NCBI GenBank assembly: GCA_964563615.1
Contig: CAZLWF010000003.1
Location: forward strand, 3,237-67,236
Direction of reading: 5' to 3'
From: an uncultured Candidatus Saccharibacteria bacterium
Lineage (GTDB): Bacteria; Patescibacteriota; Minisyncoccia; Phycocordibacterales; UBA9973
DNA: 64,000 nucleotides
Shown: in pieces, positions 29,877-46,204 of the stretch
Numbering within the stretch: the stretch's first letter is position 1
How the letters are laid out: every line of letters begins with the position of its first letter
The notes under the pieces: model-generated
What the model saw: the letters and a program-made list of their open reading frames with translations, nothing else
Database searches by the model: none
What the model was told of the DNA's origin: nothing
Translations under genes and position numbers: made by a program

Positions 29877-32800
29877 CTAAGGGGTTCCTGGTGGTGGATT
29901 AGCCGGAGGATTGTTCGGTGGTGGAGTATTGCCAGATGGAGGAGGGTTATTAGGTGGGTTTGGTGGAGGTGGAGGCGGTGTGTTATTTGGTGGAGGTGGT
30001 GTCACGATGGGAGGAGTTCCTGGTGGTATATTTGGCGGAATGGTGGTGGTACCGCCTTGTTGCGGACTAGCTGTTCCCCCGCCTCCACTATTTGCTAGGC
30101 CCTGAATGGCTGCTAGAATAGCCTGGTTTGTAGCTACGATCTGTTGGTTAGAGTTTAATGTTGCCTGGTTGACTTGTTGTTGATTCGTTGGGTCAGTTGT
30201 AGCAGGGCCACGAATATCATTTGCTGTTCTTTCGTTGTAAATATCAACCGGTCCTCTTTGGATGGCACTAATATCGGTTTGTGCTTGGCCAATAGTTGTA
30301 AGTGTAGCATTAACTGCATTTTGAGCTTGAGTAACTACTTGAGTTTGATTTTGTACGGCAGGGTCATTTGCAGGAAGAGTTCGTCTTAATGTAGTCAGTC
30401 TAGCTTGTTCTGCCTGGAGTGCGGCATTTTGTCCAGCTAATGCTTGCTGTGCAGTGGTTAATTGTTGATTGAGTACTCCAAGTTGTGGTGCTTGAGTTGC
30501 TCGGTTTGCAGCTGCACCTAGGCGATTGATAATGTAGTCAAGTCCAGCTCCTTGTTCGGTAACATTTGCTGCGCCTTGTCGGCGTTGGTTATTTCTTGCA
30601 GTAATTGCAGCGGTTGCAGTTGCTGATGCTTGTCTTGCTCCATCAATTTGTGTTTGACTGACTCTGTTTCCTGTTCTTGGGTCAACATTTCCCACGCCAA
30701 TTCCTCCAAGTCTACGTTCTTCGTTTTGTAATTGTGTAGCACGAGCTTGCTCTCTTGGTCCTGCTCTAAGTGAGTCAGCGTATGCTTTATCTTTTGCAGC
30801 TTGAGCTGATTTGTCTTTAATAAATCCACCAGATTTGACAGCTCCAACTTTCCAACCAGTTTCAGAAGCAAAACTTTTACCCGCAACAGATATGTTCCGA
30901 GCATCATAGGAAGCATTACTTGCTGCAACGCTCGTGTTAAGTGCTCTCCTTGCCAAGAATCCCCGAACCCCAGTTTCAGAAGCTGCATCTTTAAGTGCTC
31001 CACTTTCAGCAAGTCGTGCTGCTCCCGCTCCAATTACTCTGCGACCTGCATATGCTACCCCGCCTGTTGCAACACCAACTGCGGCTCCGCCAACTTTGTT
31101 CATAACAGATAATGATGCGGCGCCAATATCACCGGATAGCTTTACAGCCATATCAACCGCTGTTTTTATCAAGAAATATATAATCGCAAACGGTATGATG
31201 AGGCCGATAAGCCCTTGGATGTTACTCTCGAGGCTACCGCCAGTTGGACTGTTACTTGCTGCGATTGGTAATAGCTTAAGATCAGTCGCCATAATAATGA
31301 TGTAGAGGAAAAAGAGGAATACTGGCGCCATGAATGCTTGCGCTACTAGCTCGCTCCACCAATTAGTCCAGCCAATTTTCATCCAGCTTTTCATCGACGG
31401 TACAATCCATGATACGAAGGCAAAAGGTGAAAGTATCATCGATACCATCAGTCCTATGACGCGGCCGAGAAACAGTACAGCAACCTTGAGAAACATGAGG
31501 AACATGAATATATTGATTGCAATAGCAATGAGGAGCACAAAGAAGAACCAGCCAGTATTTTCATTGGCATCAATGTCACTCGTCTTGAATATTTTTTGTG
31601 GATTGAATTTAGAAACAAGTCCAAGGGTGATGCTCTTCTCACCGCTAGTTGACGCAGAGCTTTGCCCTGTCACACTTACTGAGTCATACATGATCCGAGC
31701 AAGGATGTTTGAGGTGTCGATAATGATTTTAGTAAAAAAGAGACTGAAGTTGATAAGGAGTGCCACGACGACAAGCGAGGCAATCATTTTTTTGGCATCG
31801 ACGCCATTGAGTCTCAAAATAGTACCGATAGCGATATACAGGAGTACGAATATGAAAAGAATATTTGAAATATCACGAACGATGCGCCAGCCTTGGGGCA
31901 CAAATTCTGTTGCAGTGTAGCTTGAGCTTTGCAAAGAAAAGTGTAAGAACCAATCGAGGAACCCAGCAGCAAGTCTCGCAAGTGCAGCAGTTGGAATGTA
32001 TAAGACGTAATATACAAGCTGAGTAAAACAACCGAGCATGTTGATTGCTGCCCTACCAGATGTCAGACTGAAATCTAAACAATATGGCAAGTTGCCAGGA
32101 TTGCCTGTATCTGTTGAGCCTTCGACAGTATTTTGACCTGCTGTTGGATTTGTCGTTACCTCAGGAGAGCCAGCTGGTAATGTTTTAAAGGATGCAATTT
32201 TCTCTTCGTCGTCACTAAGTGCGCTTAGAGTGTCATTGCTGAGTTCGCCCACACAATTACGAATTAGTGGGATAACCGAACAAGTTTCTTCGAGTCTCCC
32301 TTGGCTCACATATGGAGTATTTGGCTTTAAACCTGTAACAGTAATATTGATTGTTTGGGTACCAAGAAAAAGGTCTGGAATAACAACAATGCTCTGTCCA
32401 GTATTTTGATCGAAGGCAATTCCTGGAATAGGTTTGCCTGCGCGATCTAAAATTTTGCCGTTGATGACTTCTTCATCAGAAGGTGTTGTTGCTTCCTTTT
32501 TAGCTATGGTGCTCAAGTTGTCGGTACTTGTAGCGATATCTAAATAGACGCCGCAGCCATACCCATTACATTCGAGTGGATCATAGGATCCTAGTGCCCC
32601 ACCATTGCCTGGGATTTCTTCATTGCCTTGAGACGAATTGGATTGTCCAGAAAGTACTTCGTAAATAGGATTGCCGTCTTGCCCTTCGATGTATGTCCAC
32701 CCAGTAATTCCATTGGTGCTTCCGTTAGGAGCAATTCTTCCTTTATAAATATCATGACCAATATTGCCATCATTACCGCCATTAACTTGTAAATGGAATT

Positions 32801-32957
32801 GAAGTACTGCAGTTGTTGCTCCGATACTTATGACCTTAACCTCAGGTATATTAAAATTATCATCCAAATAAGCTTCAGCTTTGTGCGAGGTAAAAATCGG
32901 CAAAAAGCTTCCTGACAGGATAGTGATGAAGAGCACATAGAGCAGGAATTTTTTCAT
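29877..32957 (-). CDS. VirB6/TrbL-like polytopic membrane protein with a large N-terminal exodomain and a Gln/Ala-rich + polyproline C-terminal tail
   Basis: 1026 aa. Signal peptide, ~300-aa extracytoplasmic region, at least 6 hydrophobic helices (residues ~320-620), then repetitive Q/A/N-rich sequence ending TPPIVTPPPPNNTPPPPPPNPPNNPPPSGNTPPPNNPPANPPPGTP. Confidence 0.7.
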   Translation of the reverse strand: MKKFLLYVLFITILSGSFLPIFTSHKAEAYLDDNFNIPEVKVISIGATTAVLQFHLQVNGGNDGNIGHDIYKGRIAPNGSTNGITGWTYIEGQDGNPIYEVLSGQSNSSQGNEEIPGNGGALGSYDPLECNGYGCGVYLDIATSTDNLSTIAKKEATTPSDEEVINGKILDRAGKPIPGIAFDQNTGQSIVVIPDLFLGTQTINITVTGLKPNTPYVSQGRLEETCSVIPLIRNCVGELSNDTLSALSDDEEKIASFKTLPAGSPEVTTNPTAGQNTVEGSTDTGNPGNLPYCLDFSLTSGRAAINMLGCFTQLVYYVLYIPTAALARLAAGFLDWFLHFSLQSSSYTATEFVPQGWRIVRDISNILFIFVLLYIAIGTILRLNGVDAKKMIASLVVVALLINFSLFFTKIIIDTSNILARIMYDSVSVTGQSSASTSGEKSITLGLVSKFNPQKIFKTSDIDANENTGWFFFVLLIAIAINIFMFLMFLKVAVLFLGRVIGLMVSMILSPFAFVSWIVPSMKSWMKIGWTNWWSELVAQAFMAPVFLFFLYIIIMATDLKLLPIAASNSPTGGSLESNIQGLIGLIIPFAIIYFLIKTAVDMAVKLSGDIGAASLSVMNKVGGAAVGVATGGVAYAGRRVIGAGAARLAESGALKDAASETGVRGFLARRALNTSVAASNASYDARNISVAGKSFASETGWKVGAVKSGGFIKDKSAQAAKDKAYADSLRAGPREQARATQLQNEERRLGGIGVGNVDPRTGNRVSQTQIDGARQASATATAAITARNNQRRQGAANVTEQGAGLDYIINRLGAAANRATQAPQLGVLNQQLTTAQQALAGQNAALQAEQARLTTLRRTLPANDPAVQNQTQVVTQAQNAVNATLTTIGQAQTDISAIQRGPVDIYNERTANDIRGPATTDPTNQQQVNQATLNSNQQIVATNQAILAAIQGLANSGGGGTASPQQGGTTTIPPNIPPGTPPIVTPPPPNNTPPPPPPNPPNNPPPSGNTPPPNNPPANPPPGTP

Positions 32958-33092
32958 TACGTAGGATGAATAAGAAAGCTATAATCTGCCTTACTATTTT
33001 ATCACTAGAGCCTTTGTTTAGATAGCAAAAAACTGTTAATTAAAACAAAATACACTTCGCTAAATTAGGAAGTGCATTTGTAAGAAGATTAT

Positions 33093-35345
33093 TTAGTAAT
33101 TTTGTGGAAGATAATCACTGATTGAGCTGTGGTAGAATTTGTTACATTCCATTTTAAACGGCTCATTATTGTACCCTTTTGTATAGGTATATCCACCTCC
33201 TTCACCTGCATGATAGACAAATGGTATCTCTGAGAAAATCCATTGCCAGCCTGGTTCAGCGAGTGGATCGGCGTCATGATTTGCATCAGTTCCACAAAAT
33301 AGTAACTGTGCAGCATCTTTACCGACTGCTTCTTTTACAATAGGGTTCGTGCTATTTTTTTCGACCATGCAAGCCTGCTGGAGAGATGGTTCACTAATGG
33401 TAGTTCCGGGCGTATAGTGCGCAGGGTCAGATGAGCATTTTTTGTATAATGCATTAACATCTTCGCCATTTACTTTAAATGCGTAGGCTAGATCAGCAAC
33501 ATAGCCGTTACATTCATTTTGGGCATCGCTAATCGTATCACTGCGGCTAATTTTATCTTTTAAAACTACGTATTGTCCTGCGAGTTGGTTTTTGTATTGG
33601 GCAACACTTGCAGAATCAGGGCTGCCATCAGAAGGCTTTGGATGTGCAGCTATGCCCGCAACGATACTCTTTAATAATGCAAGAGATCGTACTTTATCAG
33701 AAATTTTATTCTGTAGATTACTTTGGTCTTGGTTGTACTCTTCTACTTTTTTAACTTGATCAACAATTGCTGCTGCAGAAGTAATATTCTTGATAAGGAT
33801 ATTAGTCTGGAAATTAGCGAGAATATATGACATTGCATTATTCAAATATTTTAGTTGATCCTGGGCTTGTTCCCCATTATTTGTATTATTATCTGATTTT
33901 GATTCCAGCTTCCGTGATTCAGTGGTAAATTCTGATTGCATTCTCGATGCGTATTTATAATCTGGGCCCGGCAAACATTGGTCAAGCTGCATTGTTCTAA
34001 TTGGAAATGTTTTTAATAGATCGCGACTTGCTGTTAGAATCGTAAGCTCTGTTTGAGTTTTATTGATTGCATCAAGTAATTCCGATGATGGTGTTCCAGG
34101 AGCTGTCCCTTCGAGAGGTACTGCATCAGCAACATTCCAGCTGAACGTCCCACTTGTATCTGACACAAATGCACTGTTATCTCCAGGTCCTTCGACGGTT
34201 TCATCGCCACTGCCAGTTGCAATGCTACCAATCAGTTGGCTCAAGCCTTTACTGATAAGTCCTGCAGCTAAATTTGAGACAGCGTCAACAACAGGGCTAC
34301 CACTTGCAGAATCAAGGAGGGCTTTCTCAAGTGGCGCAGTGACAGATTGGTTGAGCTGGTCAGCAACAAGTTTGCCTGGAGTTACAGTTTCATACCTTGA
34401 GCAGTCATCACTAGCGTCAAATTGGATACTACTTCCAAGGCTTAGGCTTAAGCTATTTAGATAATCATTTGCATTTGTGCCACTACTTACGCATTCGCTG
34501 GTTGCGTTTGGATTGCTTGTAGAATCAGATTGGCATTCGGTTTTCGTAGTAAATGGGCCGACAGTGTATGGTTGTAGATTGTCGTTCACTGCTGTGTATG
34601 TCCAATCTGTTGCTGTAATTGCACTTTGACCACTTGAGCCATTTTTGTACTCAACACATTTTTTTGCTGAGAGGAATCCTCCGCTTTGATTGAGTTCGTT
34701 TTGGATTGTGCCCTGTGCCTCTTTTGCCCGATTCTCTAATTCTTCAGCGGTTCGTAGATATGAACCAACAGGGTTGTTCGCGTCATTTTGAGTAAATGCC
34801 ATCCAACCATCCCATCCTCCTACAGCAAAATCGCCGTCAGTAAAGTCTTGCCAATTGGGGCCAATTACTTTGTCTAAAGTGAATTTTGATTTATCTGCGA
34901 ACACACTTGAATTGGTTGCTAAATACGAGGTAATGAGGTTTTTGGCAACCCCCTGGGAATACGGAAACTTGGTTATATCACCAGTGATTTCATTAACGAA
35001 TGATTCAACTTTCTGATCAGCAATGCTTTTAAAAAAGCTTGATTGGTCACGGACAAAAAAAGGATTGCCGTTAAATCCAGTTGACCCCCAGTTGATGATT
35101 TGCTGGGTCATATTGAGTGCAACCTGGGAACTTATACGCTTGAGAGATTTTTGGAGCAAAGTACCAGCTAAAGTTTTGCCGGCACTCGCAGCTGATTGGG
35201 ATCCAAAAATAGTCTGTATAATTTGTTGGGGCAAATTCGGCAAATCTACAACTGGTAGTCCTGCGTGTGCTTGATTAATCTGTACTGTCAGCAATAAGAA
35301 AAGACTAAGAAAAGAAATAATACTATACTGATAGCGCTTTTTCAT
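33093..35345 (-). CDS. large secreted hypothetical protein (750 aa)
   Basis: Signal peptide MKKRYQYSIISFLSLFLLLTVQINQAHA. No recognisable catalytic motif. Confidence 0.75.
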   Translation of the reverse strand: MKKRYQYSIISFLSLFLLLTVQINQAHAGLPVVDLPNLPQQIIQTIFGSQSAASAGKTLAGTLLQKSLKRISSQVALNMTQQIINWGSTGFNGNPFFVRDQSSFFKSIADQKVESFVNEITGDITKFPYSQGVAKNLITSYLATNSSVFADKSKFTLDKVIGPNWQDFTDGDFAVGGWDGWMAFTQNDANNPVGSYLRTAEELENRAKEAQGTIQNELNQSGGFLSAKKCVEYKNGSSGQSAITATDWTYTAVNDNLQPYTVGPFTTKTECQSDSTSNPNATSECVSSGTNANDYLNSLSLSLGSSIQFDASDDCSRYETVTPGKLVADQLNQSVTAPLEKALLDSASGSPVVDAVSNLAAGLISKGLSQLIGSIATGSGDETVEGPGDNSAFVSDTSGTFSWNVADAVPLEGTAPGTPSSELLDAINKTQTELTILTASRDLLKTFPIRTMQLDQCLPGPDYKYASRMQSEFTTESRKLESKSDNNTNNGEQAQDQLKYLNNAMSYILANFQTNILIKNITSAAAIVDQVKKVEEYNQDQSNLQNKISDKVRSLALLKSIVAGIAAHPKPSDGSPDSASVAQYKNQLAGQYVVLKDKISRSDTISDAQNECNGYVADLAYAFKVNGEDVNALYKKCSSDPAHYTPGTTISEPSLQQACMVEKNSTNPIVKEAVGKDAAQLLFCGTDANHDADPLAEPGWQWIFSEIPFVYHAGEGGGYTYTKGYNNEPFKMECNKFYHSSISDYLPQNY

Positions 35346-35369
35346 GTTGTTTTTAGTATAGCACCCGCT

Positions 35370-36314
35370 TTATTGTGAACCAAAGCCTCCTGCAATATAG
35401 ATATCATTTTGAAGTATATTTAAATTTGTCTCGAGTGAAGTCAAAATATCATTTGACTGGTAAATACTAGCAAGCGCTGGGATTGGATCAATGGGATATT
35501 TAGCAATATCAGCAAACATATCAGCTGTTCTGTTGATGCTATTAATGAGAGCAAGATGTGTTGATGCCTCGCTTTCAGGTACAGGTAAAGCGAGAAGTGT
35601 CGTAACTAATGCATGATACTTGTCAGCGATTTTTTGTATATTTGCATCAGGTGTCGTTAAGTCCGGAGTAACAACAATGCTGCCAAGGGTAATAAAATCT
35701 TCTTGTTTAATTGGGTATTTGAGTAATGCATTACCAAAACCTGTAATATATGCCGATGAGTTAGTGCTCGTATTGGCATTACTTTTAATATCACTAATTG
35801 TGTAAGTTTTGCCTGGAGGTTTAGTTTTTATAAACGTGATTATTTCAGCAGTAATACTTGCTGATGATTCATCAGTTAGTTTTCCATTTTCTTGTAATGC
35901 TGCAATCGTTGAGAAAAGCTCTCTGGTAAATGTATCTGTTTGGCTTAAAATTTCAGGGGCCAGTTCATTTGGTGTTGCTGTTGATGCATTGATCGATGTG
36001 CGTAGACTGGCAACTTCTTCACCATCGCTTATTCCATTGCCATTTGTGTCTGGGTTTTTCGGGTCCATATCCCATAGTGGCTCTTCCCAATCTGCTAATC
36101 CATCGTTGTCTGTATCTGTTTCGACAAGCGTACCTAATGCGACAGTAGGTCCTGCGGGAATACGAGTATCTTTGATCTCATTTGTTTTGTTAAAAACAAT
36201 GCGAGTACGTATATATGATATGCAAACACCGACAATGATAACAATGCCGATAATCAAAAGCACGCGAAGCATCTTTTTGCTAGGTAAATATGAGATGACT
36301 TTAGGTGGTTCCAC
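35370..36314 (-). CDS. membrane-anchored protein with thrombospondin-type-3-like Asp-rich repeats (first gene of T4SS-like operon)
   Basis: 314 aa. TM VLLIIGIVIIVGVCISYI. ETDTDNDGLADWEEPLWDMDPKNPDTNGNGISDGEE. Confidence 0.7.
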   Translation of the reverse strand: MEPPKVISYLPSKKMLRVLLIIGIVIIVGVCISYIRTRIVFNKTNEIKDTRIPAGPTVALGTLVETDTDNDGLADWEEPLWDMDPKNPDTNGNGISDGEEVASLRTSINASTATPNELAPEILSQTDTFTRELFSTIAALQENGKLTDESSASITAEIITFIKTKPPGKTYTISDIKSNANTSTNSSAYITGFGNALLKYPIKQEDFITLGSIVVTPDLTTPDANIQKIADKYHALVTTLLALPVPESEASTHLALINSINRTADMFADIAKYPIDPIPALASIYQSNDILTSLETNLNILQNDIYIAGGFGSQ

Positions 36315-37155: not shown

Positions 37156-39066
37156 TTATTCAAAGTATAATATTTTTTCACTGTGACCTCTCGGTTGGTA
37201 AAGTTCCTGCTCAACAAGCTCTGGTGGAATGTCATAAATAAATTCTGAAGGTATATTGATTTGGCGCATGCCAAATATAGTTCTCGTTTCTGCATAGGAG
37301 AGATAAAGAAATTCCTTAGCTCGGGTGACAGCGACATAAAACAATCTGCGCTCTTCTTCGGCATCTTCGATTGTCTTACTATCGAGTCTGGCATGAGGGA
37401 AAAGATCTTGCTCCAGGCCAACAATAAAGACAACTTTAAATTCCAGACCCTTCGCCGCATGAACAGTCATGAGTCTAACTCCGCCCCTGTCTTCTTCTAG
37501 ATTATCTTGATCGCTCGCGAGTGCCGCATCAGTTAAAAGCTTATCCATGCCTTCATCAATCCCCCACGCGTCATATTTGGTCGCAAGTGTTACGAGTTCC
37601 TCTAAGTTCATGAGTCGGTCTTCATCATCTGCACCTCCAGCTCGTAATGTCTCATCGATCTTGGCTTCATGAAGAATATATTTAAATACTTCTGATGGCA
37701 GCATAGTTTTTTTACATTCGTTGATACGATCGAGTAGTTCATAGAATGCATTGATTTTTACTTGCATAGGCTTTGGCAATGCTTCTAGCTCTCCAGCAAA
37801 TAATTTTACCAATGTCACTTTGCCAATGCCACGTGTTGGGAAATTGATGATGCGTTTGATGTCAGATAGCGAATTGCGATTGTGTGCTGCTCTCACATAA
37901 GCGAGCATGTCTTTGATTTCTTTACGCTCAAAGAATTTCGTTCCAACAACTTGATATGGAATATTGGCACCAAGCATGGCTTCCTCGAGTACGCGTGATT
38001 GGAAGTTGGCTCGATATAAAACGGCAATATCCTTTGGAGCTGTTCCCTCTCGAATAAAGTTGTCTGCTGTATCAGCGACGAACCCAGCTTCATCATTCTC
38101 GCCAAAGGCAGTGTAGAGCTTGATACTATCGCCGTCTTTACCGGTATGGAGGAGAAGTTTTGGTATTCGTACGGTATTTTTTTTGATAATAGCGTTGGCC
38201 GCATCGAGGATAACTTTTGTCGATCGGTAATTATGTTCAAGAAAGACAATCTTGGCTTCTGGATAGTCCTTTTCAAATCGGAGCATATTTTTCATATTGG
38301 CACCCCGCCAGCTATAAATGTTTTGGTCCATATCACCCACGACGCAGATATGATGGTCACTGCCGACCAATAGCTTAGCGAGCTCATATTGCACGGTATT
38401 GGTGTCTTGGTATTCGTCGATATGGATGTAGCGCCAGCGCGACTGATATTCATCACGTATGGTTTGGTTGCGAAGTGCGATAAGTGCATAGAGCAAGAGA
38501 TCATCGAAATCAACCGAACCCTCCTTCTTTTTCTTCTCTTCATATTTCTGCCAAACGCTGTTAATAAGCTCCTCACTATAGTTTGAAGCTTTAGTGGCAA
38601 ATTGTTCTTGGGTCTCGCCTTCACCCTTGGCCTTTGATATAACATATCGGAATTTGCGAGGTTCTTGGGCTTTAGGATCAAGGCCGAGCTCTTTGATGGA
38701 TTCTTTGATGAGGGATATCGTATCTCCGTCATCTAAAATAGTAAAATACCTTGTTAGATTAAAAAGTTTGGCATGTTCGCGCAGGATAGTCGCTGCCAAT
38801 GCATGAAATGTTGCCACAAATGGCACTTCAGTTATACCTTTTGGCAGTACACTTATCACACGTTCACGCATTTCTTTGGCTGCTTTGTTCGTGAAAGTAA
38901 TAGCAAGAATCTGATTCGGAAGTACACCTTCCTTGATAAGGTGTACAATGCGGTGTGTAATTGTTTTTGTTTTACCTGCACCAGCACCGGCCACAATGAG
39001 AAGTGGTCCATGTATAGAAAGTGCGGCTTCTTTTTGCTTTTCATTGAGTCCATCGAGATATTCCAT
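37156..39066 (-). CDS. pcrA: UvrD/PcrA-family ATP-dependent DNA helicase
   Basis: LNEKQKEAALSIHGPLLIVAGAGAGKTKTITHRI, IHIDEYQDTN, YRS, VHAAKGLEF, RRLFYVAVTRAK. The start is set at MEYLDGLN, because the upstream extension overlaps repeat copy C. Confidence 0.9.
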   Translation of the reverse strand: MEYLDGLNEKQKEAALSIHGPLLIVAGAGAGKTKTITHRIVHLIKEGVLPNQILAITFTNKAAKEMRERVISVLPKGITEVPFVATFHALAATILREHAKLFNLTRYFTILDDGDTISLIKESIKELGLDPKAQEPRKFRYVISKAKGEGETQEQFATKASNYSEELINSVWQKYEEKKKKEGSVDFDDLLLYALIALRNQTIRDEYQSRWRYIHIDEYQDTNTVQYELAKLLVGSDHHICVVGDMDQNIYSWRGANMKNMLRFEKDYPEAKIVFLEHNYRSTKVILDAANAIIKKNTVRIPKLLLHTGKDGDSIKLYTAFGENDEAGFVADTADNFIREGTAPKDIAVLYRANFQSRVLEEAMLGANIPYQVVGTKFFERKEIKDMLAYVRAAHNRNSLSDIKRIINFPTRGIGKVTLVKLFAGELEALPKPMQVKINAFYELLDRINECKKTMLPSEVFKYILHEAKIDETLRAGGADDEDRLMNLEELVTLATKYDAWGIDEGMDKLLTDAALASDQDNLEEDRGGVRLMTVHAAKGLEFKVVFIVGLEQDLFPHARLDSKTIEDAEEERRLFYVAVTRAKEFLYLSYAETRTIFGMRQINIPSEFIYDIPPELVEQELYQPRGHSEKILYFE

Positions 39067-39114
39067 CTGATTACTATAGCATGACGTAGAATTCCTCTTT
39101 CCTTTGTGTTTTTT

Positions 39115-39214: not shown

Positions 39215-39276
39215 TGGGTCTGTTCATAAACAATAAAAGTGCCGTAGGATACTACAGCACTTTTATTGTTTATTTT

Positions 39277-39585
39277 TTAGTTCCCAATTTGGCTCATCAC
39301 ATCCATGCTCTCTTGTTGAAATCGCTCTGCCTCTTCTTTGGCCATAGCGTCGAAGTTCTCAACATTGGTTCGTAGGTATTCCATAAGTTCTTCTGGACTT
39401 GCGTCGTTATCGAGCATTTTCTCAAATGCTTTTTGCATTGTGTCATCCATTGTTTCCATTGCTTTGATAAGAACACTTTGGAAGATTAATCCGCCGATTC
39501 GCTCGATAGTATCGTTCTGCTCTGCTTCTGATAATCCACCTAAGTTATAAGCAGCAATAATTGTTTTTCGTAATGTTGGATCCAT
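39277..39585 (-). CDS. small helical hypothetical protein (102 aa)
   Basis: ORF 45 nt downstream of the 1075-aa gene. Acidic, Met-rich, with no motif recognised. Confidence 0.65.
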   Translation of the reverse strand: MDPTLRKTIIAAYNLGGLSEAEQNDTIERIGGLIFQSVLIKAMETMDDTMQKAFEKMLDNDASPEELMEYLRTNVENFDAMAKEEAERFQQESMDVMSQIGN

Positions 39586-39630
39586 ATAGATAGTGTATCG
39601 TATTAATAATTTTTTACAAACTACGTTTTA

Positions 39631-42600
39631 TTATTTTGGTATATTGCCTGTTGGTATGGTAGCTCCTGGTCTGTTGGCAACATTCGGAATTCCCCCATTG
39701 TTTACGCCTGGTCGACTGGTAACATTCTGGAGTCCGCCATTACTCACTCCTGGTCTGTTGGCAAGTTTCTGTAATCCGCCACCAGTTGCTCCCTGTCCGT
39801 CAGTTGCATTACTGAGTCCTGCTGGTCGTGATGGTAGTGGCTGCAAGTTTGGATTATTAGGTAATGGTTTTAGTGCCTGTCCGCCAGTGCCAGGTTTATT
39901 GTTGTAGCCATATTCGTAGCTATCTGGGTTTGATTCAAACGGAGTACTGCCGATGATGTGCATTTCTTTTGGTATGCCATCCATATATTCACGAACAACA
40001 TATCCTCCACCAAAAGGATTTTTCTCAATAGCGTATGATGCATGACCAATACTGCCTGTAGCGAGGCGAACCTCATGTCCGTTTTGGAAGTAGCCAGTTT
40101 TACTTGCAATCTCATGCGCCTGGTGTTGGGCGAATTCATGCAAATCGCCGCTCGTCCAGCCCATTTTTGCAGCTAGTGCGCCGTTGTTGGCTTCAAGTTG
40201 TCGTATGAATACATTTTCAACACCGTCACCCTTTTGTACCAATGCATATTCGCTAAGTGGGGTTGGAGTTTCTACTGTTGGATGGTCAATGGTGCTTGGG
40301 TGGTCTACAGTTCCTGGTGCTTGATTTGCAAAATGCTCAGTGGCGTAGTGTCCTGCCCATAGCCCAAAGCCAATGCTCGATGCACCACGAATACCTGCGT
40401 TCAAGTAACGATCAAGGCTCTCACTCTTTTGCTTTCTTTTGTGGACGCTTTGATAGAGAGCTTCATTTCTCGTGAGCCACTCATTGCCAAATCCCTCACC
40501 GTATTTATTGAGACGCCTCATGCGCTCCATGTCTCTCTCAAAGTCTCTGTCAATTATTTTTTGATTATGGAAAAGATTTTTTATCCCAATACCAACTTCA
40601 CCAGCTGCCGCACCACCGACAACTCTCGCACCTACGCCAGCTGCTGCTGCGCCAAAGGCAGCCAAGCTTCCGCCGCCTGTAAGTGTTGTGATTGCTGCAA
40701 CGCCTGTACCTATGCCGATTGATAGTAGTATGCGTTTCCAACGAGGTTGAATCTTGCCATACCATGCGATGCCTTTTTCCAAAATACCGCGCTCGCGTGT
40801 TGGTAATGCCTCAAGCTTTGCTCGGGCAAGCGTGTCACCTTCATCGAGAATGAGTGTTTTAAAGAGAACCCCATTTTGGAAACTATCGAGAGCCAATTTC
40901 TTTTCTGCTGGGCTCGCATGATTACGGTCAAGCTTATCGTTTTCTTGTTTAAGTAAATGTTTGCCGTAGGCGATTTTGGCGTCCTTGTACGTTTGTTGGG
41001 TACGTTCGTGCGCGAGTCGCACTGGGTCAGTCGCCTGGAGATCTTCTTTGGCGATTTTTTCACCGACAAGTTTGTTCCAAATATTTCTTTGGAACCATGC
41101 ACCGAAACCTTTTTTATTACGAGCTTGATCTTGTCGTTCTTCGAGCATGTCACGGTAGGTTTCGATATAGAGTGCTCGAGCTTCATTGAGTGATTGCTCA
41201 GGAGTTTTTATTTGTTCTTGTTTAGCTGTATCACTCACAGCTTTTGCAAGTACTGCTTCTGGAGTGTCTTTACTTTTTGCTGCCGTTGGCTTTATAGCTT
41301 CTTTAGGATCAAATATTTCTATGCGGTCTGCCCCCTCGTGCTCACGGATATCTTCATCGCTTGCTATTCGTAGCTCGCCGCTTTCAAATTGCCCTAAGAA
41401 CTGTCTTTCAGGTATATATTTTGTTTGATTTGAGACAAAATAGACATTATATTTTATTCCCCTGGCATTAGTTTTTTCTTGGATATCAGTAATAGAAAAT
41501 AGTTCTTTTCCTACTGTATCGAAAATAAAGTCACCCTTTTTCAGTTCGAGAGGTTTTTTAACCTCTGGAGCTTTTGCTGCTGTATCAATTGGTGCTTCGG
41601 TAAGTTCGAGTGCCTTTGATGCAAATCCTTCGGCTAATGTCTCTGCCGATACTTCATCAGGGCTTCCATCGAATACATAGACATTGTATTTTTCACCTTC
41701 AGGACTTGTCTTTTCTCTAATTTCTGAAACGACAGTAATTTTGCCAAACTTTTTACCATCATTGATATTCCATATGCGGCTACCAACGACAAGTTTATTT
41801 ACAATGTCCATACCAGCAGTAATTTCTGGTTTTCCTGGGACTGCCTCCACTTTCTTTACTGGTGGAGTTGTTTTGGTCTCTACTGTTGGTATTTCACTCT
41901 CAGTCATTAATCTAATTTTTCCTGTTGCGAATGCTAAGGCAAGGCCTTTTGCCGATACTCTATTTGTTTTATTGCTAAATGTGTATGAATTAAACTTCTC
42001 GTTTTTATCATTAATTTCCTCTTTTATTTCTAAAACAGTATGTTGTTTCCTCCCTTTAGCATTTTCTGTGGCTTCCCCGACAACACTCCCAACCTTAAGT
42101 GCGTTAACTTTCTCCCATGCTTGAGCCAAGGATTCTGCAGTAACTTTGTCTTCAAATTTTCCAACCTTTTTTTCCCTACCCCCTGTTTTTGCTGGATGTT
42201 TAGATAGTATAGCTACCTTCGGTATACGCTTTGCTTGTGCTGTGTATGTTGTATAATGTTCACCTTTTTTCTTTTTATTTGCCATTGGTCCAAGTAAATT
42301 CTCAATGGCCTTATTCGTATATATTTCTGTAGTTGCATTTGTATTCTTATCTAAGTCTTCTTTACTTGCGAATACACTTACGGTAAAACGATTGATACCT
42401 TTTTCGTCAGCTTCTTCCTTATCGATTCGATAATAGTTAGTATCTTTTTGCCAGGTGTCTCCTTCGTGGAAAGTCTTTAATGGTGACATGTAAAATCCAC
42501 TATTTTCTTTGTACCCTTCTAACTTCACTTTTTGTTCTTTTGAACTAAAAAGATTTACACCTTGTGCAACCATATCTTCATACGGAATAGTTTTCTTATT

Positions 42601-42858
42601 ATTTTTTGAATCTTCAAGTTCGACAGTAGATGCTTTTGGATCTCCAGGAACTATAGTAACTTCACTTATTGTGTAATTTTTTTGATCTCCAGGAAATTTC
42701 CATATCTCACCCTTTTTAAAATTAAAATTCCCCTCTATCGTCCCTACTGGTTCGTTCATAAGTTTATCTAAATTTTCAAACGTGGTGTCTATATCAGCTA
42801 ATCTTTTATTTGAAGCCATCAGTAACAAATCTTTAGTTTTTTTTGAATCGAAAGCCAT
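39631..42858 (-). CDS. giant hypothetical protein (1075 aa): N-terminal array of ~60-aa beta-type repeats, Gly-zipper TM region, C-terminal domain and NRPG-repeat tail
   Basis: At least 5 degenerate repeats of the pattern G(D/S)x(I/V)W...(Y/F)x(I/V)...(I/V). Hydrophobic ILLSIGIGTGVAAITTLTGGGSLAAFGAAAAGVGARVVGGAAAGEVGIGI. Tail LANRPGVSNGGLQNVTSRPGVNNGGIPNVANRPGATIP. Confidence 0.75.
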   Translation of the reverse strand: MAFDSKKTKDLLLMASNKRLADIDTTFENLDKLMNEPVGTIEGNFNFKKGEIWKFPGDQKNYTISEVTIVPGDPKASTVELEDSKNNKKTIPYEDMVAQGVNLFSSKEQKVKLEGYKENSGFYMSPLKTFHEGDTWQKDTNYYRIDKEEADEKGINRFTVSVFASKEDLDKNTNATTEIYTNKAIENLLGPMANKKKKGEHYTTYTAQAKRIPKVAILSKHPAKTGGREKKVGKFEDKVTAESLAQAWEKVNALKVGSVVGEATENAKGRKQHTVLEIKEEINDKNEKFNSYTFSNKTNRVSAKGLALAFATGKIRLMTESEIPTVETKTTPPVKKVEAVPGKPEITAGMDIVNKLVVGSRIWNINDGKKFGKITVVSEIREKTSPEGEKYNVYVFDGSPDEVSAETLAEGFASKALELTEAPIDTAAKAPEVKKPLELKKGDFIFDTVGKELFSITDIQEKTNARGIKYNVYFVSNQTKYIPERQFLGQFESGELRIASDEDIREHEGADRIEIFDPKEAIKPTAAKSKDTPEAVLAKAVSDTAKQEQIKTPEQSLNEARALYIETYRDMLEERQDQARNKKGFGAWFQRNIWNKLVGEKIAKEDLQATDPVRLAHERTQQTYKDAKIAYGKHLLKQENDKLDRNHASPAEKKLALDSFQNGVLFKTLILDEGDTLARAKLEALPTRERGILEKGIAWYGKIQPRWKRILLSIGIGTGVAAITTLTGGGSLAAFGAAAAGVGARVVGGAAAGEVGIGIKNLFHNQKIIDRDFERDMERMRRLNKYGEGFGNEWLTRNEALYQSVHKRKQKSESLDRYLNAGIRGASSIGFGLWAGHYATEHFANQAPGTVDHPSTIDHPTVETPTPLSEYALVQKGDGVENVFIRQLEANNGALAAKMGWTSGDLHEFAQHQAHEIASKTGYFQNGHEVRLATGSIGHASYAIEKNPFGGGYVVREYMDGIPKEMHIIGSTPFESNPDSYEYGYNNKPGTGGQALKPLPNNPNLQPLPSRPAGLSNATDGQGATGGGLQKLANRPGVSNGGLQNVTSRPGVNNGGIPNVANRPGATIPTGNIPK

Positions 42859-42873
42859 GTAATTTTATTTAGA

Positions 42874-44742
42874 TTATTTTTTTGATTCCTCAATCTCAAT
42901 TATTGGTAATTCTGCTATTTTCTTGTTAATTATATCTTCCTTTGTTCTTACTTTTGCGGTAATTAATTTGTATTCTTGACCATTGATTTTTAATGCATGA
43001 ATAACTTTTGCATATTCTGGCTTATCACGTCTACTGAGAATGCTATTCATCCACCCCTCAATAAGTTGCTCGTATTTATTAAGTGTAATTCTATATATAC
43101 GATCTGTATTTTGAGAAGTAAACTCTAGTATATCCTCATTTTTTTCAAGATCGAAGTATGCTCTTTTTACAATAAATGTATCTTTGGATTTAAAAAAATT
43201 TTCGAGTATAAATCGTTGGTAATCCTCAGTAACTGTTTCGCCTGGCTTGTATATTTGTCCAGCAATATTTATTGGCGTTTCTTCAAGTCGTCTTGTCTGA
43301 TCTTTCAATATTTTCAAAACAATCATTCCTTGTGCGACAACAAATTCTCCATTTTGATTTTCCTCAGGAGTAAGTACTAGCATAATATTATTTTTTTCCT
43401 CCTTTATTTCCTTCAGTATGTATTTTGGTGAATTTTGGGTTGTAACTGCATTTATTGCTTCAATAAATAAAGGTTCAGTAATTACATCACCAGGTTTTAT
43501 CATTTTACCCCCAATATATGTACGTGTAATCTCTACATCACTGCCAATTTGGGTTCTGCTTTCAGCAGTATCTTTAGTCCTCTTTTCGTGCTTAATGTTT
43601 CGTAGCTCATAGCCATGCCTATATCTCATTACATTCGTTAATTTTGAAACAGTCATAGCTTGTTCGCCTTTTTTCTCATAGTCGCCTTTTCTGACTTGAA
43701 CTTTCCTTGCTCTTATATCATTTAACCATTCTCTTTTGCCACATAATATATTAATTATTTCATCATCAATTTCTCCCAACTCCTCATATAATTCACTAAG
43801 CTCTCTTTCAAGCGTTTCCATGGTAACTCCCCTTTCACCATTACTGATGCCAGCTTTAAATCGATCAAATTCATCAGGTTTACCTACCTCCTTGTAACGA
43901 TTTGTAATTCCATATTCAATATTTTTTAATTGCACCTCTGCTTCTTGTTTGGCTTTCTTACTTTTTGCATGCGTAAGTTCGTCAAGTTTTTCTACATAAC
44001 GTTTTAATAGTTCTTTTTTTTCATATTCTTTACGCAATGTATCTTGTTCAGCCATCTTTTTCTTATATGCTTTCAGTTCACTTTCACTTAGTGTTTTTTT
44101 GTCTTTTTTTATAAAACCACTATTTGGATCTGGTGGGTTTGTGTCAGTAACTTCAATTACTTGACCCCACATTGCATCATAAATACGATCTCCAGTTTTG
44201 AAAACATCTGGTATTCTTCTATTAATACGCTCCATTTCTTCAGCTGAAAGGTTTAAAATCCCTTTCATTCGTTTTTTAAAAGCTTCTGAAAACTTTCCTA
44301 ATGGTTTCGAGTCGATGTTACTAAGGGGGCCATGGCCATTATCAACATATTCAATAATTTTATCTTTTGACCAGCTCTTTACACCTTCATGCCACCCTCG
44401 TGATTCAAGGATTGCAATACCTGTTTCAATTAGATTCTGGTTTATTTCCTGACGTTCATGCACGCTCATGCCTCCTGATTCTATTTGTTCTCGTAACAAA
44501 TCAAAAAATTTAGATAGAGTTGTCTCTGCTTCATCTGGCTTTTTTACAATATCTTTTGTTTCTAGCTGCGTCTCTTTCTCATTCTTCTTTACTTTTTTCT
44601 TCTGACTAGCTACCTTTTTGGGTATTGTTTTTTCATTTTCTGGTTTAGATTTGAGAACATCCTTAATTTTTGATAGGTCATTAGTTTCTGTAGAAGCCTT
44701 TTCATTCTGATCTTTCTTTGTACCCTCAAATTGTTTCGCCAT
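42874..44742 (-). CDS. large Lys/Glu-rich hypothetical protein (622 aa)
   Basis: Long ORF 15 nt upstream of the 1075-aa gene. It has similar G(D/E)x(I/V)...beta-type modules (GDRIYDAMWGQVIEVTD, PGDVITEPLFIEAINAV, KPGETVTEDYQRFI). No known motif. Confidence 0.75.
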   Translation of the reverse strand: MAKQFEGTKKDQNEKASTETNDLSKIKDVLKSKPENEKTIPKKVASQKKKVKKNEKETQLETKDIVKKPDEAETTLSKFFDLLREQIESGGMSVHERQEINQNLIETGIAILESRGWHEGVKSWSKDKIIEYVDNGHGPLSNIDSKPLGKFSEAFKKRMKGILNLSAEEMERINRRIPDVFKTGDRIYDAMWGQVIEVTDTNPPDPNSGFIKKDKKTLSESELKAYKKKMAEQDTLRKEYEKKELLKRYVEKLDELTHAKSKKAKQEAEVQLKNIEYGITNRYKEVGKPDEFDRFKAGISNGERGVTMETLERELSELYEELGEIDDEIINILCGKREWLNDIRARKVQVRKGDYEKKGEQAMTVSKLTNVMRYRHGYELRNIKHEKRTKDTAESRTQIGSDVEITRTYIGGKMIKPGDVITEPLFIEAINAVTTQNSPKYILKEIKEEKNNIMLVLTPEENQNGEFVVAQGMIVLKILKDQTRRLEETPINIAGQIYKPGETVTEDYQRFILENFFKSKDTFIVKRAYFDLEKNEDILEFTSQNTDRIYRITLNKYEQLIEGWMNSILSRRDKPEYAKVIHALKINGQEYKLITAKVRTKEDIINKKIAELPIIEIEESKK

Positions 44743-44796
44743 AGTCTTTAAATTATGTATAAAATATTAGTTCCTGTCAATTTTTAGCCTTTTTTC

Positions 44797-44820
44797 TTAT
44801 CCACATGTCGGTGTGGATAT
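44797..44820. promoter_or_regulatory. inverted pair of DnaA-box sequences (TTATCCACA tgtcgg TGTGGATAT)
   Basis: Exact DnaA-box consensus at 44797-44805, with a reverse-oriented 8/9 copy at 44812-44820, 55-78 bp upstream of the 622-aa gene start. Confidence 0.5.
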
Positions 44821-45106
44821 CGTGATTGACTCACCCAGTCGGAGGCGGTACCCTTGTATCTGTGGGTGGTATAGAGCTAGTATATATCCTACAAATTTGT
44901 TTACCTAGTAGATATCCCCATTTTCAAGCAATTTCCTCATATTTCTGAACTGATCGTAACGACTGTCTAAGCTTGTGTAATCCTTGCAGCCTTCTTATGT
45001 AGCCATAAGGTCGTTCTGTGAGAGAGCTTTGCAGTTATTTTTTTAGTATATAAAACCCTTTTTAAAAGATTCTTCAAGCGACAACGCTGTCTCAGATCGC
45101 TCAAAG

Positions 45107-46204
45107 ATGATAAAACCTTTATTTTACAAGCACGGAGCATCCGGGGTTGTTTTTATGTTGTTGGCTATCGGTTTGCTGCTCTACCCACTCGAGTCATATG
45201 CCAATTTTTTCTCAACCGCTTTATTTCAAAAGCCTGAAAAAGCCTATGCTCAAAACGTGCCAATGGCTAAAAATTCACAGACATTACCAATTTTGCAGGC
45301 AGAAAATACGACAGTAGCCATAAAAGCGACTGAAAGTGCTGATATTATTATCTCAGATGATACTGCCTTAGTGCCGCAAGCAGGACCTTCAGGCACTGTT
45401 GCTGATCTATCAGAAGATGTAACGAGTGGTCAGATTAGCACGTATGTTGTTAGGTCGGGCGATTCCCTGTCAGTTATAGCTGACATGTTTAATGTTTCTA
45501 TTAATACGATTCTTTGGGCAAATGATTTAAAGAAAGGCCAAGCGCTCCAAACTGGTGATACGCTTATTATTTTGCCTGTGACAGGACTAAAATACACAGT
45601 AAAGAAAGGCGATACAGTAAACTCAATTGCTAAAAAGTTTAGCCTTGATTCATCAGAAGACATTATTTCATACAATAACTTAGAAACAGCCACTGTTTCG
45701 GTTGGCGATGTACTCATTATCCCTGGCGCAGAATTGCCTGCTGAAGTTCCAGTAGCACCAAAGAAAACCCCAGTCAAACAAGGCGGTAGCAGTAGTGTCT
45801 TTGCCAAGAATCAATCTGCAGGAAGCAAAATCGCTGGTTACTTTATAAAGCCAATACCGTGTGGTCTTACCCAAAACAAGCATGACAAATATGCTGTCGA
45901 TATGAGTTGCGGCGGTTCTGGTATGTCAGTTAAAGCTGCAGCCAGTGGTACCGTCAAATTTGCAAAGACTGGCTGGAATGGTGGTTTCGGTAATCTCATT
46001 GTTATTGCTCATGCCAATGGTACTCAAACATTCTATGCCCATCTATCTAAGATTAATGTTTCCATAGGTGCGACAGTCGAACAAGGTACTGTCATCGGTA
46101 ATGTCGGCTCGACAGGACGCTCGACTGGACCACACCTTCACTTTGAAGTTCGCGGTGCATATAATCCTGGCTTCGACACATCAGGTCAGCTTTGGAAAAG
46201 ATAG
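45107..46204 (+). CDS. LysM-domain M23 family metallopeptidase
   Basis: 365 aa. N-terminal TM/signal. Two LysM repeats (YVVRSGDSLSVIADMFNVSINTILWAN; YTVKKGDTVNSIAKKF). M23 motifs HDKYAVDM and GSTGRSTGPHLHFEVR. Confidence 0.9.
   Translation: MIKPLFYKHGASGVVFMLLAIGLLLYPLESYANFFSTALFQKPEKAYAQNVPMAKNSQTLPILQAENTTVAIKATESADIIISDDTALVPQAGPSGTVADLSEDVTSGQISTYVVRSGDSLSVIADMFNVSINTILWANDLKKGQALQTGDTLIILPVTGLKYTVKKGDTVNSIAKKFSLDSSEDIISYNNLETATVSVGDVLIIPGAELPAEVPVAPKKTPVKQGGSSSVFAKNQSAGSKIAGYFIKPIPCGLTQNKHDKYAVDMSCGGSGMSVKAAASGTVKFAKTGWNGGFGNLIVIAHANGTQTFYAHLSKINVSIGATVEQGTVIGNVGSTGRSTGPHLHFEVRGAYNPGFDTSGQLWKR

Follow-up and report, generated by a model that had tools for sequence, protein, structure and literature searches.

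An undescribed family of modular membrane proteins in Patescibacteria and its small DUF5663 neighbor

The window analyzed here, a 64,000-nt stretch of contig CAZLWF010000003.1 in whose numbering all coordinates are given, carries three back-to-back open reading frames (ORFs) on the minus strand: A (44742..42874, 622 aa), B (42858..39631, 1075 aa) and C (39585..39277, 102 aa). All other genes and sites of the window whose coordinates follow lie on the same strand, except for the divergent LysM-M23 peptidase gene. The spacing is 15 nt between A and B and 45 nt between B and C, just as in a preliminary description of this DNA, which regarded the three genes as one operon for two giant Lys/Glu-rich proteins with common SH3- or Tudor-like modules and proposed a scaffold, cytoskeletal or cell-surface system. 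Such a locus raises two questions: do the three genes belong together, and what could B, a modular membrane protein, be doing in the cell? According to the profile searches and locus comparisons presented here, B is a polytopic membrane protein from a modular family that has not been described so far and occurs across Patescibacteria (Paceibacterota/Nomurabacteria), and the conserved unit is B together with C, not the trio. We further propose, with moderate confidence, that B acts across the membrane as a tether or scaffold, together with C as a putative cytoplasmic partner.

B has no match in Pfam, NCBIfam, PHROG, PADLOC or among PDB sequences; the PDB sequence searches, made with ortholog profiles, were empty. 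The preliminary description had recognized no catalytic or known structural motif in A or B, and these database scans, which gave no family match, agree with it. Word-indexed homolog searches (with B, with A and with a 26-sequence family alignment) gave near relatives only, and what revealed the family was a profile search run exhaustively over 1.84 billion cluster representatives (clusters at 50% identity, E<=1e-3). It consists of 148 representative clusters at that threshold, 46 of them at E<=1e-10, and all 148 matches cover B residues ~550-1000, never the repeats. Two further sets of relatives, 10 and 6, were scanned and contained no Pfam domain. The shared core aligns in 130/152 sequences and opens with a helical region whose last residues read LPPKEKG..WY. 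After it come a Gly/Ala-rich hydrophobic stretch of ~56 aa, a basic loop of ~55 aa and one more hydrophobic helix. Every family hallmark is present in B: the LPxKEKG..WY helical region, the Gly-zipper hairpin, the basic loop, the third transmembrane (TM) helix or TM3, and, as the part that some members do without, a domain predicted to lie outside the membrane.

The helical juxtamembrane region of B (residues 545-705, 40744..41226) ends in LPxKEKG...WY, which reads LPTRERG...WY in B itself, is matched in 110/152 family members and forms long helices in the AlphaFold2 (AF2) model, with a predicted local distance difference test score (pLDDT) of up to 80. The Gly/Ala-zipper region that follows it (residues 706-760, 40579..40743) reaches a maximum Kyte-Doolittle value (KD) of 1.68 and shows, by inspection, repeated (G/A)xxx(G/A) spacing. 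The Gly/Ala-rich membrane segment noticed earlier is present (residues 709-760), and the membrane anchoring of B is supported; Pfam Gly-zipper models do not match B. In 124 members this stretch has a median length of 56 aa and a maximum KD of 1.69, and its flanks are basic on both sides (K/R 6 against D/E 2 on the N-terminal side, and 13 K/R in the loop on the other), which makes a two-helix TM hairpin, its two ends cytoplasmic, the most likely arrangement. A basic helical loop predicted to be cytoplasmic comes next (residues 761-818, 40405..40578; 14 K/R in 59 residues, family median 13), and then the third hydrophobic helix, the putative TM3 (residues 819-843, 40330..40404), which is 100% identical to the ortholog. 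Throughout the family this helix is TM-grade, with a median KD of 1.4 and values >=1.0 in 86% of members, and behind it comes a linker that is rich in P/T/S and slightly acidic. The ~230-aa globular C-terminal region of the preliminary description thus dissolves into four parts: the basic loop, the weakly hydrophobic third helix, a linker rich in P and T, and a domain of ~125 aa.

Which way this protein sits in the membrane decides how the rest of it is read. B has no signal peptide, the basic flanks are conserved and cytoplasmic domains stand N-terminal to the core in relatives, so an N-terminus inside the cell is favored. A C-terminus outside is favored by the P/T/S-rich acidic linker, by one family member (P0138) in which the outside domain stands behind a single basic-flanked N-terminal signal-anchor, and by the lack of any hydrophobic segment downstream of the outside domain in all 60 members that carry it. 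With this favored N-in/C-out topology ~700 of the 1075 residues of B, all repeats included, are predicted to be cytoplasmic, which speaks against the cytoskeletal or cell-surface system that had been suggested.

The outside domain itself is an alpha/beta domain of ~125 aa (residues 866-990, 39889..40263), predicted to be extracytoplasmic. Loci were compared in three sets, 4 found by protein identity, 14 from genomes and 79 from metagenomes, the last two making up the profile-fetched set of 93. The domain is carried by 60/152 family members and by 93/93 of the fetched loci, which were fetched with a tight alignment of this very domain. Its consensus is ..AIVHKGEGIEHAFIRQIEHNP.LA..LG[WF].G..LH.FA..EAH..A...GY....G.E.R.. 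and its family signature KGxG(I/V)E..RQ(I/L)E..LG(W/F)..GY; Q887 and G900 are invariant, and G877, G879, R886, G922 and Y923 are conserved to at least 90%. An AF2 model from 44 sequences (pLDDT 86.2, predicted template modeling score 0.80) consists of two long helices packed against a 5-strand sheet, ~110 aa in all, for which Foldseek found no match in PDB (best E 0.58) or BFVD; there was no Pfam or PDB-sequence match either. The beginning of the domain, 'YALVQKGDG', could bring LysM to mind, and this identity was rejected: 0/44 sequences match LysM and the fold differs from the ~45-aa beta-alpha-alpha-beta fold of LysM. In many relatives (e.g. P0017, P0019, P0023, P0026, P0029, P0035) a different conserved domain stands in its place, with the consensus ..SSRGAIQTI.DLK..I..DYPDISKAP.SVQEFMKTNSTQEAIKLGFYNP.., and most of these proteins end in a conserved module, ..TGL.P......ET.EEYI.RALQKAAE.G.L.., that is absent from B. 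What B has at its end is a Pro/Gly/Asn-rich tail (residues 991-1075, 39634..39888) with 14-aa NRPG repeats, predicted to be disordered (pLDDT <30 in the AF2 model). The NRPG repeats had been seen before and were recovered by Tandem Repeats Finder (TRF) as a 42-nt unit in 2.8 copies (39663-39781); the tail is lineage-specific, with other C-terminal extensions in relatives.

Selection was examined through the ratio of nonsynonymous to synonymous substitution rates (dN/dS), with the orthologous genes of the Ca. Nomurabacteria genome CP064958 (locus L001) as the reference. It is 0.32 for A, 0.24 for B and 0.016 for C, and 0.016-0.11 for neighboring housekeeping genes. These values, all well under 1, mean that A, B and C are real protein-coding genes under purifying selection. 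Constraint is distributed very unevenly along B: dN/dS is 0.09 in the helical region, 0.07 in the TM hairpin, 0.01 in the basic loop, 0 in TM3 and 0.06 in the outside domain, then 0.24 in the tail, 0.16-0.18 in modules 1-3 and 0.4-0.8 in the N-terminal 45 residues and linkers. Module 4 evolves fast, with 42% identity to its ortholog and a dN/dS of 0.63. By this measure B keeps its membrane core and outside domain invariant, and it is the cytoplasmic end that evolves and is swapped.

These values also bear on the idea that A and B are an adhesin or host-interaction system, with the repeats and most of both proteins displayed outside and used for attachment by an episymbiont. Patescibacteria are thought to be episymbionts and protein families enriched in the candidate phyla radiation (CPR) are mostly membrane or extracellular (PMC6744442), family members carry alternative C-terminal domains, and modules 3-4 of B diverge fast. 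We nevertheless find this quite improbable. A has neither a signal peptide nor a TM segment and B has no signal peptide; the highly charged N-terminus of B runs for 700 aa before the first TM segment, whose flanks are basic, and in relatives this N-terminal position is occupied by DnaJ, PP2C or FtsK-gamma. Moreover, what is predicted to be outside, the 125-aa domain with the tail, is subject to strong or moderate purifying selection, and not to diversifying selection. No adhesin, S-layer or wall-binding repeat family was matched, and homology to S-layer or cell-wall-binding domains (SLH, CWB, SH3b), the possibility against which the preliminary description wanted its modules and C-terminal domain checked, was found in neither.

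The swapping of the cytoplasmic end is seen directly in the relatives. Above its thresholds, Pfam places FtsK_gamma N-terminal to the core in three of them (P0021, P0046, P0051) and PP2C in P0020, while DnaJ stands there in P0018 and, by jackhmmer, in two more; altogether 7 of 245 relatives carry one of these domains (P0021, P0046, P0051, P0018, P0066, P0135, P0020). It follows that the core anchors interchangeable cytoplasmic domains. A similar arrangement would be expected if B were a trans-membrane sensor whose outside domain detects an envelope or extracellular cue and whose core relays it to interchangeable cytoplasmic outputs, which would be the Tudor-like repeats in B and PP2C, DnaJ or FtsK-gamma in relatives, with C as a cytoplasmic adaptor or regulator. 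A conserved sensor and core with a variable cytoplasmic domain is typical of receptors, PP2C and DnaJ are outputs of a regulatory type, the loop, TM3 and the outside domain are the most constrained parts, and the long conserved juxtamembrane helices could transmit a signal. This explanation is possible and, in our opinion, doubtful, since no HAMP, PAS, kinase, GGDEF or anti-sigma domain was recognized, fusions with enzymes are rare and B, like most of the family, lacks an enzymatic or DNA-binding output; besides, the architecture suits a passive tether equally well.

In B the swappable end is occupied by five small modules. At least five had been counted earlier; three of these, modules 3-5 (residues 250-323, 352-424 and 438-504; 41347..42111), are solid homologous tandem repeats of ~70 aa (pairwise blastp E 7e-13 for modules 3 and 4, 2e-6 for 4 and 5, and 2e-4 for 3 and 5), and the repeat recurs in the nearest distant relatives (P0006, P0007, P0049, P0153-155). 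Modules 1 (residues ~46-106, 42541..42723; dN/dS 0.17) and 2 (residues ~126-192, 42283..42483; dN/dS 0.16) are beta-rich units in the structural model only; in sequence, hhalign relates them neither to modules 3-5 nor to one another (probability <1%). The AF2 model of full-length B was made from a 7-sequence alignment and has a mean pLDDT of 50, with 60-80 in the modules, and in it all five module regions appear as small beta-rich units. Module 1 has strands at 52-54, 61-68, 78-82 and 88-92 and a helix at 93-98 (pLDDT 60-74), module 2 strands at 135-138, 141-150, 156-163 and 176-181 and helices at 166-171 and 182-189, and modules 3-5 have a common beta-beta-beta-beta-alpha-beta pattern (pLDDT 60-80). 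When this model was compared with PDB by Foldseek, the top ~37 matches were nearly all tandem or triple Tudor arrays, among them SETDB1, Spindlin1, the UHRF1 tandem Tudor domain (TTD), SAWADEE and Papi eTudor, with probabilities of 0.7-0.97, a best E of 1.9e-3, alignments of ~250-280 columns and low TM-scores; no PDB match reached E<=1e-3. The SH3/Tudor-like fold proposed earlier thus finds structural matches, weak ones (E ~2e-3) and from a low-confidence model, and we consider it plausible for the repeats of B. Sequence profiles of Tudor, Agenet, SH3 or KOW type gave no match to B in Pfam or NCBIfam at E<=1, and nothing relevant was found when the literature on Tudor domains in Patescibacteria was searched.

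The proposed partner of B is the product of gene C (39277..39585), which encodes an acidic, all-helical protein of 102 aa. It scores 17.7 bits (E 0.005) against Pfam DUF5663 (PF18908), whose gathering threshold is 23.7 bits, and a syntenic ortholog that is 61% identical to it (L003:13368-13673) scores 27.7 bits, which makes C a DUF5663 member by transitive homology. The literature searched contains no mention of DUF5663. In the CP064958 comparison C is 98% identical to its ortholog. A C-like gene is found directly downstream of the B-like gene in 33 of the 93 loci, with gaps mostly of 21-26 nt, and directly upstream of it in 8 (L070, L071, L075, L079, L081, L082, L093, L097), so that the two adjoin in one order or the other in 41/93; where the B-like gene has 500 nt or more of sequence on each side, the fraction is 30/57. 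Adjacency that survives the inversion of gene order, together with the extreme constraint on C, argues for a functional B-C pair. Within the 64-kb window there are no paralogs of B, of C or of the outside domain.

Gene A (42874..44742) stands outside this conserved unit. Its homologs are restricted to one Nomurabacteria lineage, at 82% identity in a genome ~80% identical to that of the window, and none is present in the 93 related loci, hence the trio as such, whose conservation the preliminary description wanted checked, is not a conserved unit. The position between M23 and pcrA is kept by B and C, with A absent from the related loci. A is Lys/Glu-rich as stated before (K 13.5%, E 12.4%), a property shared only moderately by B (K 9.8%, E 8.5%). 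A hydropathy scan found no TM-grade segment in A or C, and A has no above-threshold match in Pfam, NCBIfam, PHROGs or PADLOC. The modules said to be common to A and B, about three of them in A, were not detected in A by HMM, jackhmmer or hhalign; its sole internal similarity is an 18-aa motif that occurs twice (residues 405-422 and 491-508; hhalign probability 9%) and reads I-x-G-x-x-x-K-P-G-[DE]-x-[IV]-T-E. We also asked whether A could be a paralog of the B-family proteins, or an N-terminus separated from one of them, and discarded this, as it matches nothing in 152 family members or in the ORFs of the loci. At ~45% identity in the B core, the slot upstream of B is taken by an unrelated 638-aa protein (blastp E 0.23 to A), and in other loci by at least two further unrelated groups, or it is empty; with three or more unrelated groups the proteins of this slot are not one family. 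In two loci of the P0006 genome (L002/L005) the slot contains a 554-aa and a 140-aa ORF that jointly match the single 638-aa protein of L003, likely a frameshift or a split gene. By its distribution and selection values A is a young, poorly constrained, species-level orphan, probably co-transcribed here with B and C.

The composition around A could suggest a foreign origin, since the GC content of window positions 42001-44000, which coincide with gene A, is 0.33, with a GC skew of -0.22 and an AT skew of -0.28 on the plus strand. If the locus were mobile, phage-derived or a defense element, or if the ORFs were spurious, one could also point to weak, sub-threshold matches of C to tail- or tape-measure-like PHROGs (E 0.02-0.1) and to the PADLOC PbeC match of A (13.3 bits, E 0.005) over a coiled-coil-like stretch. 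It is the Lys/Glu-rich, purine-rich coding strand of A that accounts for the low GC; no integrase, repeats, tRNA or Rfam elements were found at the A-B-C region, dN/dS is well under 1 in all three genes, and the chromosomal position among housekeeping genes is fixed in >90 loci. These explanations are hardly credible, and the synteny and selection data exclude them.

That the three genes form one operon here, as previously described, is in accordance with the signals which enclose them. A promoter-like TTGACA-17 nt-CATAAT of sigma-70 type (44752..44780), known as a consensus match only (11/12 positions), ends 9 nt from the ATG of A. It lies in the 364-nt intergenic region (44743-45106) that separates A from the divergent LysM-M23 peptidase gene (45107-46204). 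Directly 3' of C and ahead of pcrA there is a hairpin resembling an intrinsic terminator (39226..39268), with a 17-bp stem, -23 kcal/mol, a z-score of -8.3 and a UUUAU tract behind it. A single A-B-C transcript is therefore plausible, and the three genes are probably co-transcribed. Messenger RNA from the candidate promoter would be nearly leaderless, and no Shine-Dalgarno sequence was evident in the upstream sequence of A, B or C; together this suggests leaderless or Shine-Dalgarno-independent initiation.

The block sits between the divergent LysM-M23 peptidase gene and pcrA, and this position recurs. The window itself stems from a Paceibacterota/Nomurabacteria-type genome. The order in related loci is ComM, M23-LysM in the opposite direction, a variable slot, and then, again in the direction of ComM, the B-like and C-like genes, PcrA, KsgA, p314 and p750; the divergent M23 gene is upstream in 17/27 evaluable loci and pcrA downstream in 35/50. 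It could consequently be argued that A, B and C are merely neighbors, B a stand-alone membrane protein and C unrelated to it, their order inherited: the block from ComM to p750 is syntenic in spite of its mixed, unrelated functions, C is missing beside B in about half of the loci, and A is clearly dispensable. We hold this to be unlikely, because C still adjoins B where the order is inverted, the most frequent gap is 21-26 nt, promoter and terminator enclose all three genes and C is extremely constrained. As for the other genes of the block, pcrA of the window (37156-39069) encodes a PcrA/UvrD helicase of ~637 aa that ends 43 aa past its UvrD_C domain. Pfam finds no C-terminal Tudor domain in it, nor in the PcrA of L014 and L016 (709 and 719 aa). 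In PcrA/UvrD the C-terminal Tudor/SH3-like domain is an interaction domain that binds RNA polymerase (PMC5397179). Behind ksgA, nearly all related loci carry three syntenic hypothetical genes, p1026, p750 and p314 (window 29877-36314); Pfam recognizes no domain in p750 or p1026, p1026 is fast-evolving (72% identity, dN/dS 0.29), and p314 has an N-terminal TM segment and a weak match to bacterial TSP3 repeats. The order M23, B-like, PcrA, KsgA, p314, p750 is also found on a 277-kb contig labeled as a Burkholderiales metagenome-assembled genome (L016, JAMPXW010000001.1), which is probably mis-binned.

We return to the tether or scaffold, a role to which the favored N-in/C-out topology and the putative Tudor/SH3-like binding repeats lead. 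The N-terminal repeats would be binding modules that face the cytoplasm and bind a partner there. The outside domain and the flexible Pro/Gly/Asn tail would face the wall, with the domain binding an envelope ligand, and the Gly-zipper core, probably oligomeric, would be assisted by C on the cytoplasmic side. In this manner B could physically couple a cytoplasmic partner to an envelope ligand across the membrane. The process served may be envelope remodeling or division, a speculation prompted by the fixed LysM-M23 neighbor and the FtsK-gamma fusions in relatives. Several observations weigh against this proposal. The main uncertainty is the third helix, which is weak in B (KD 0.58) and in the subfamily of B (KD 0.58-0.9), so that the location of the outside domain of B is taken from its relatives. 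The Tudor assignment comes from a model with a mean pLDDT of 50, with no match at E<=1e-3 and no backing from sequence profiles. About half of the B-like genes have no C next to them, and the M23/PcrA/KsgA neighborhood may be the inherited synteny of a slowly rearranging lineage, pcrA and ksgA being unrelated housekeeping genes. Finally, no homology ties any part of A, B or C to a function.

Patescibacteria lack much of the canonical divisome. A much bolder possibility, for us a long shot, is that B and C constitute a Patescibacteria-specific trans-envelope device in which the Tudor-like repeats, or FtsK-gamma in relatives, hold the nucleoid, or the transcription or segregation machinery, at the membrane and the outside domain engages the wall or the LysM-M23 hydrolase. 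If true, such a device would link chromosome handling to septal wall remodeling, and a window PcrA without the domain for binding RNA polymerase would fit a redistribution of that function.

A large part of bacterial diversity is patescibacterial, and to the majority of the lineage-specific membrane proteins of Patescibacteria no role has been assigned (PMC6744442); as CPR-enriched membrane families of this kind are known to be numerous (PMC6744442), another such family is unsurprising in itself. What is new here is the protein family and its domain, and not a mechanism. The family is now defined by 148 clusters, a fixed chromosomal position, a confidently modeled outside domain, a DUF5663 partner and a plug-in cytoplasmic end, and it offers a target for structure determination and interaction screens. 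That DUF5663 is linked with a specific membrane-protein partner is a new finding and the first contextual clue to this family.

How do B and C compare with systems already known? C resembles DUF5663 in being small (~100 aa), all-helical and acidic, and it remains below the Pfam threshold itself, unlike its 61%-identical ortholog. With glycine-zipper two-TM motifs B has in common the (G/A)xxx(G/A) spacing, which is conserved in the family; the difference is that B is a multidomain protein of 1075 aa, of which the motif is one part, and has no Pfam Gly-zipper match. Known Tudor-type modules are binding domains and not enzymes. Tandem and triple Tudor arrays, the best Foldseek matches, resemble B in their consecutive beta-barrel-type modules (predicted in B, three of ~70 aa), but the modules of B have an extra C-terminal helix and strand, show no sequence-profile similarity and belong to a bacterial membrane protein instead of a chromatin context. 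Bitopic or polytopic bacterial envelope scaffolds with cytoplasmic and outside domains include RodZ, FtsK with its gamma domain, and the M23/LytM hydrolases controlled by FtsEX. A role of B as an FtsX-type regulator was considered and rejected, since Pfam and NCBIfam give no FtsX match, and no gene for an FtsE-like ABC-ATPase stands beside B in the window or in the neighborhoods of the related loci; the resemblance to the FtsEX-M23/LytM system lies in the M23-LysM gene, the conserved divergent neighbor of B, by adjacency only. B has no homology to RodZ, FtsK or FtsX. What it shares with all of these systems is the combination of a cytoplasmic module, a TM part and an extracytoplasmic domain, and in the case of FtsK the likeness goes further, as some relatives of B actually carry FtsK_gamma.

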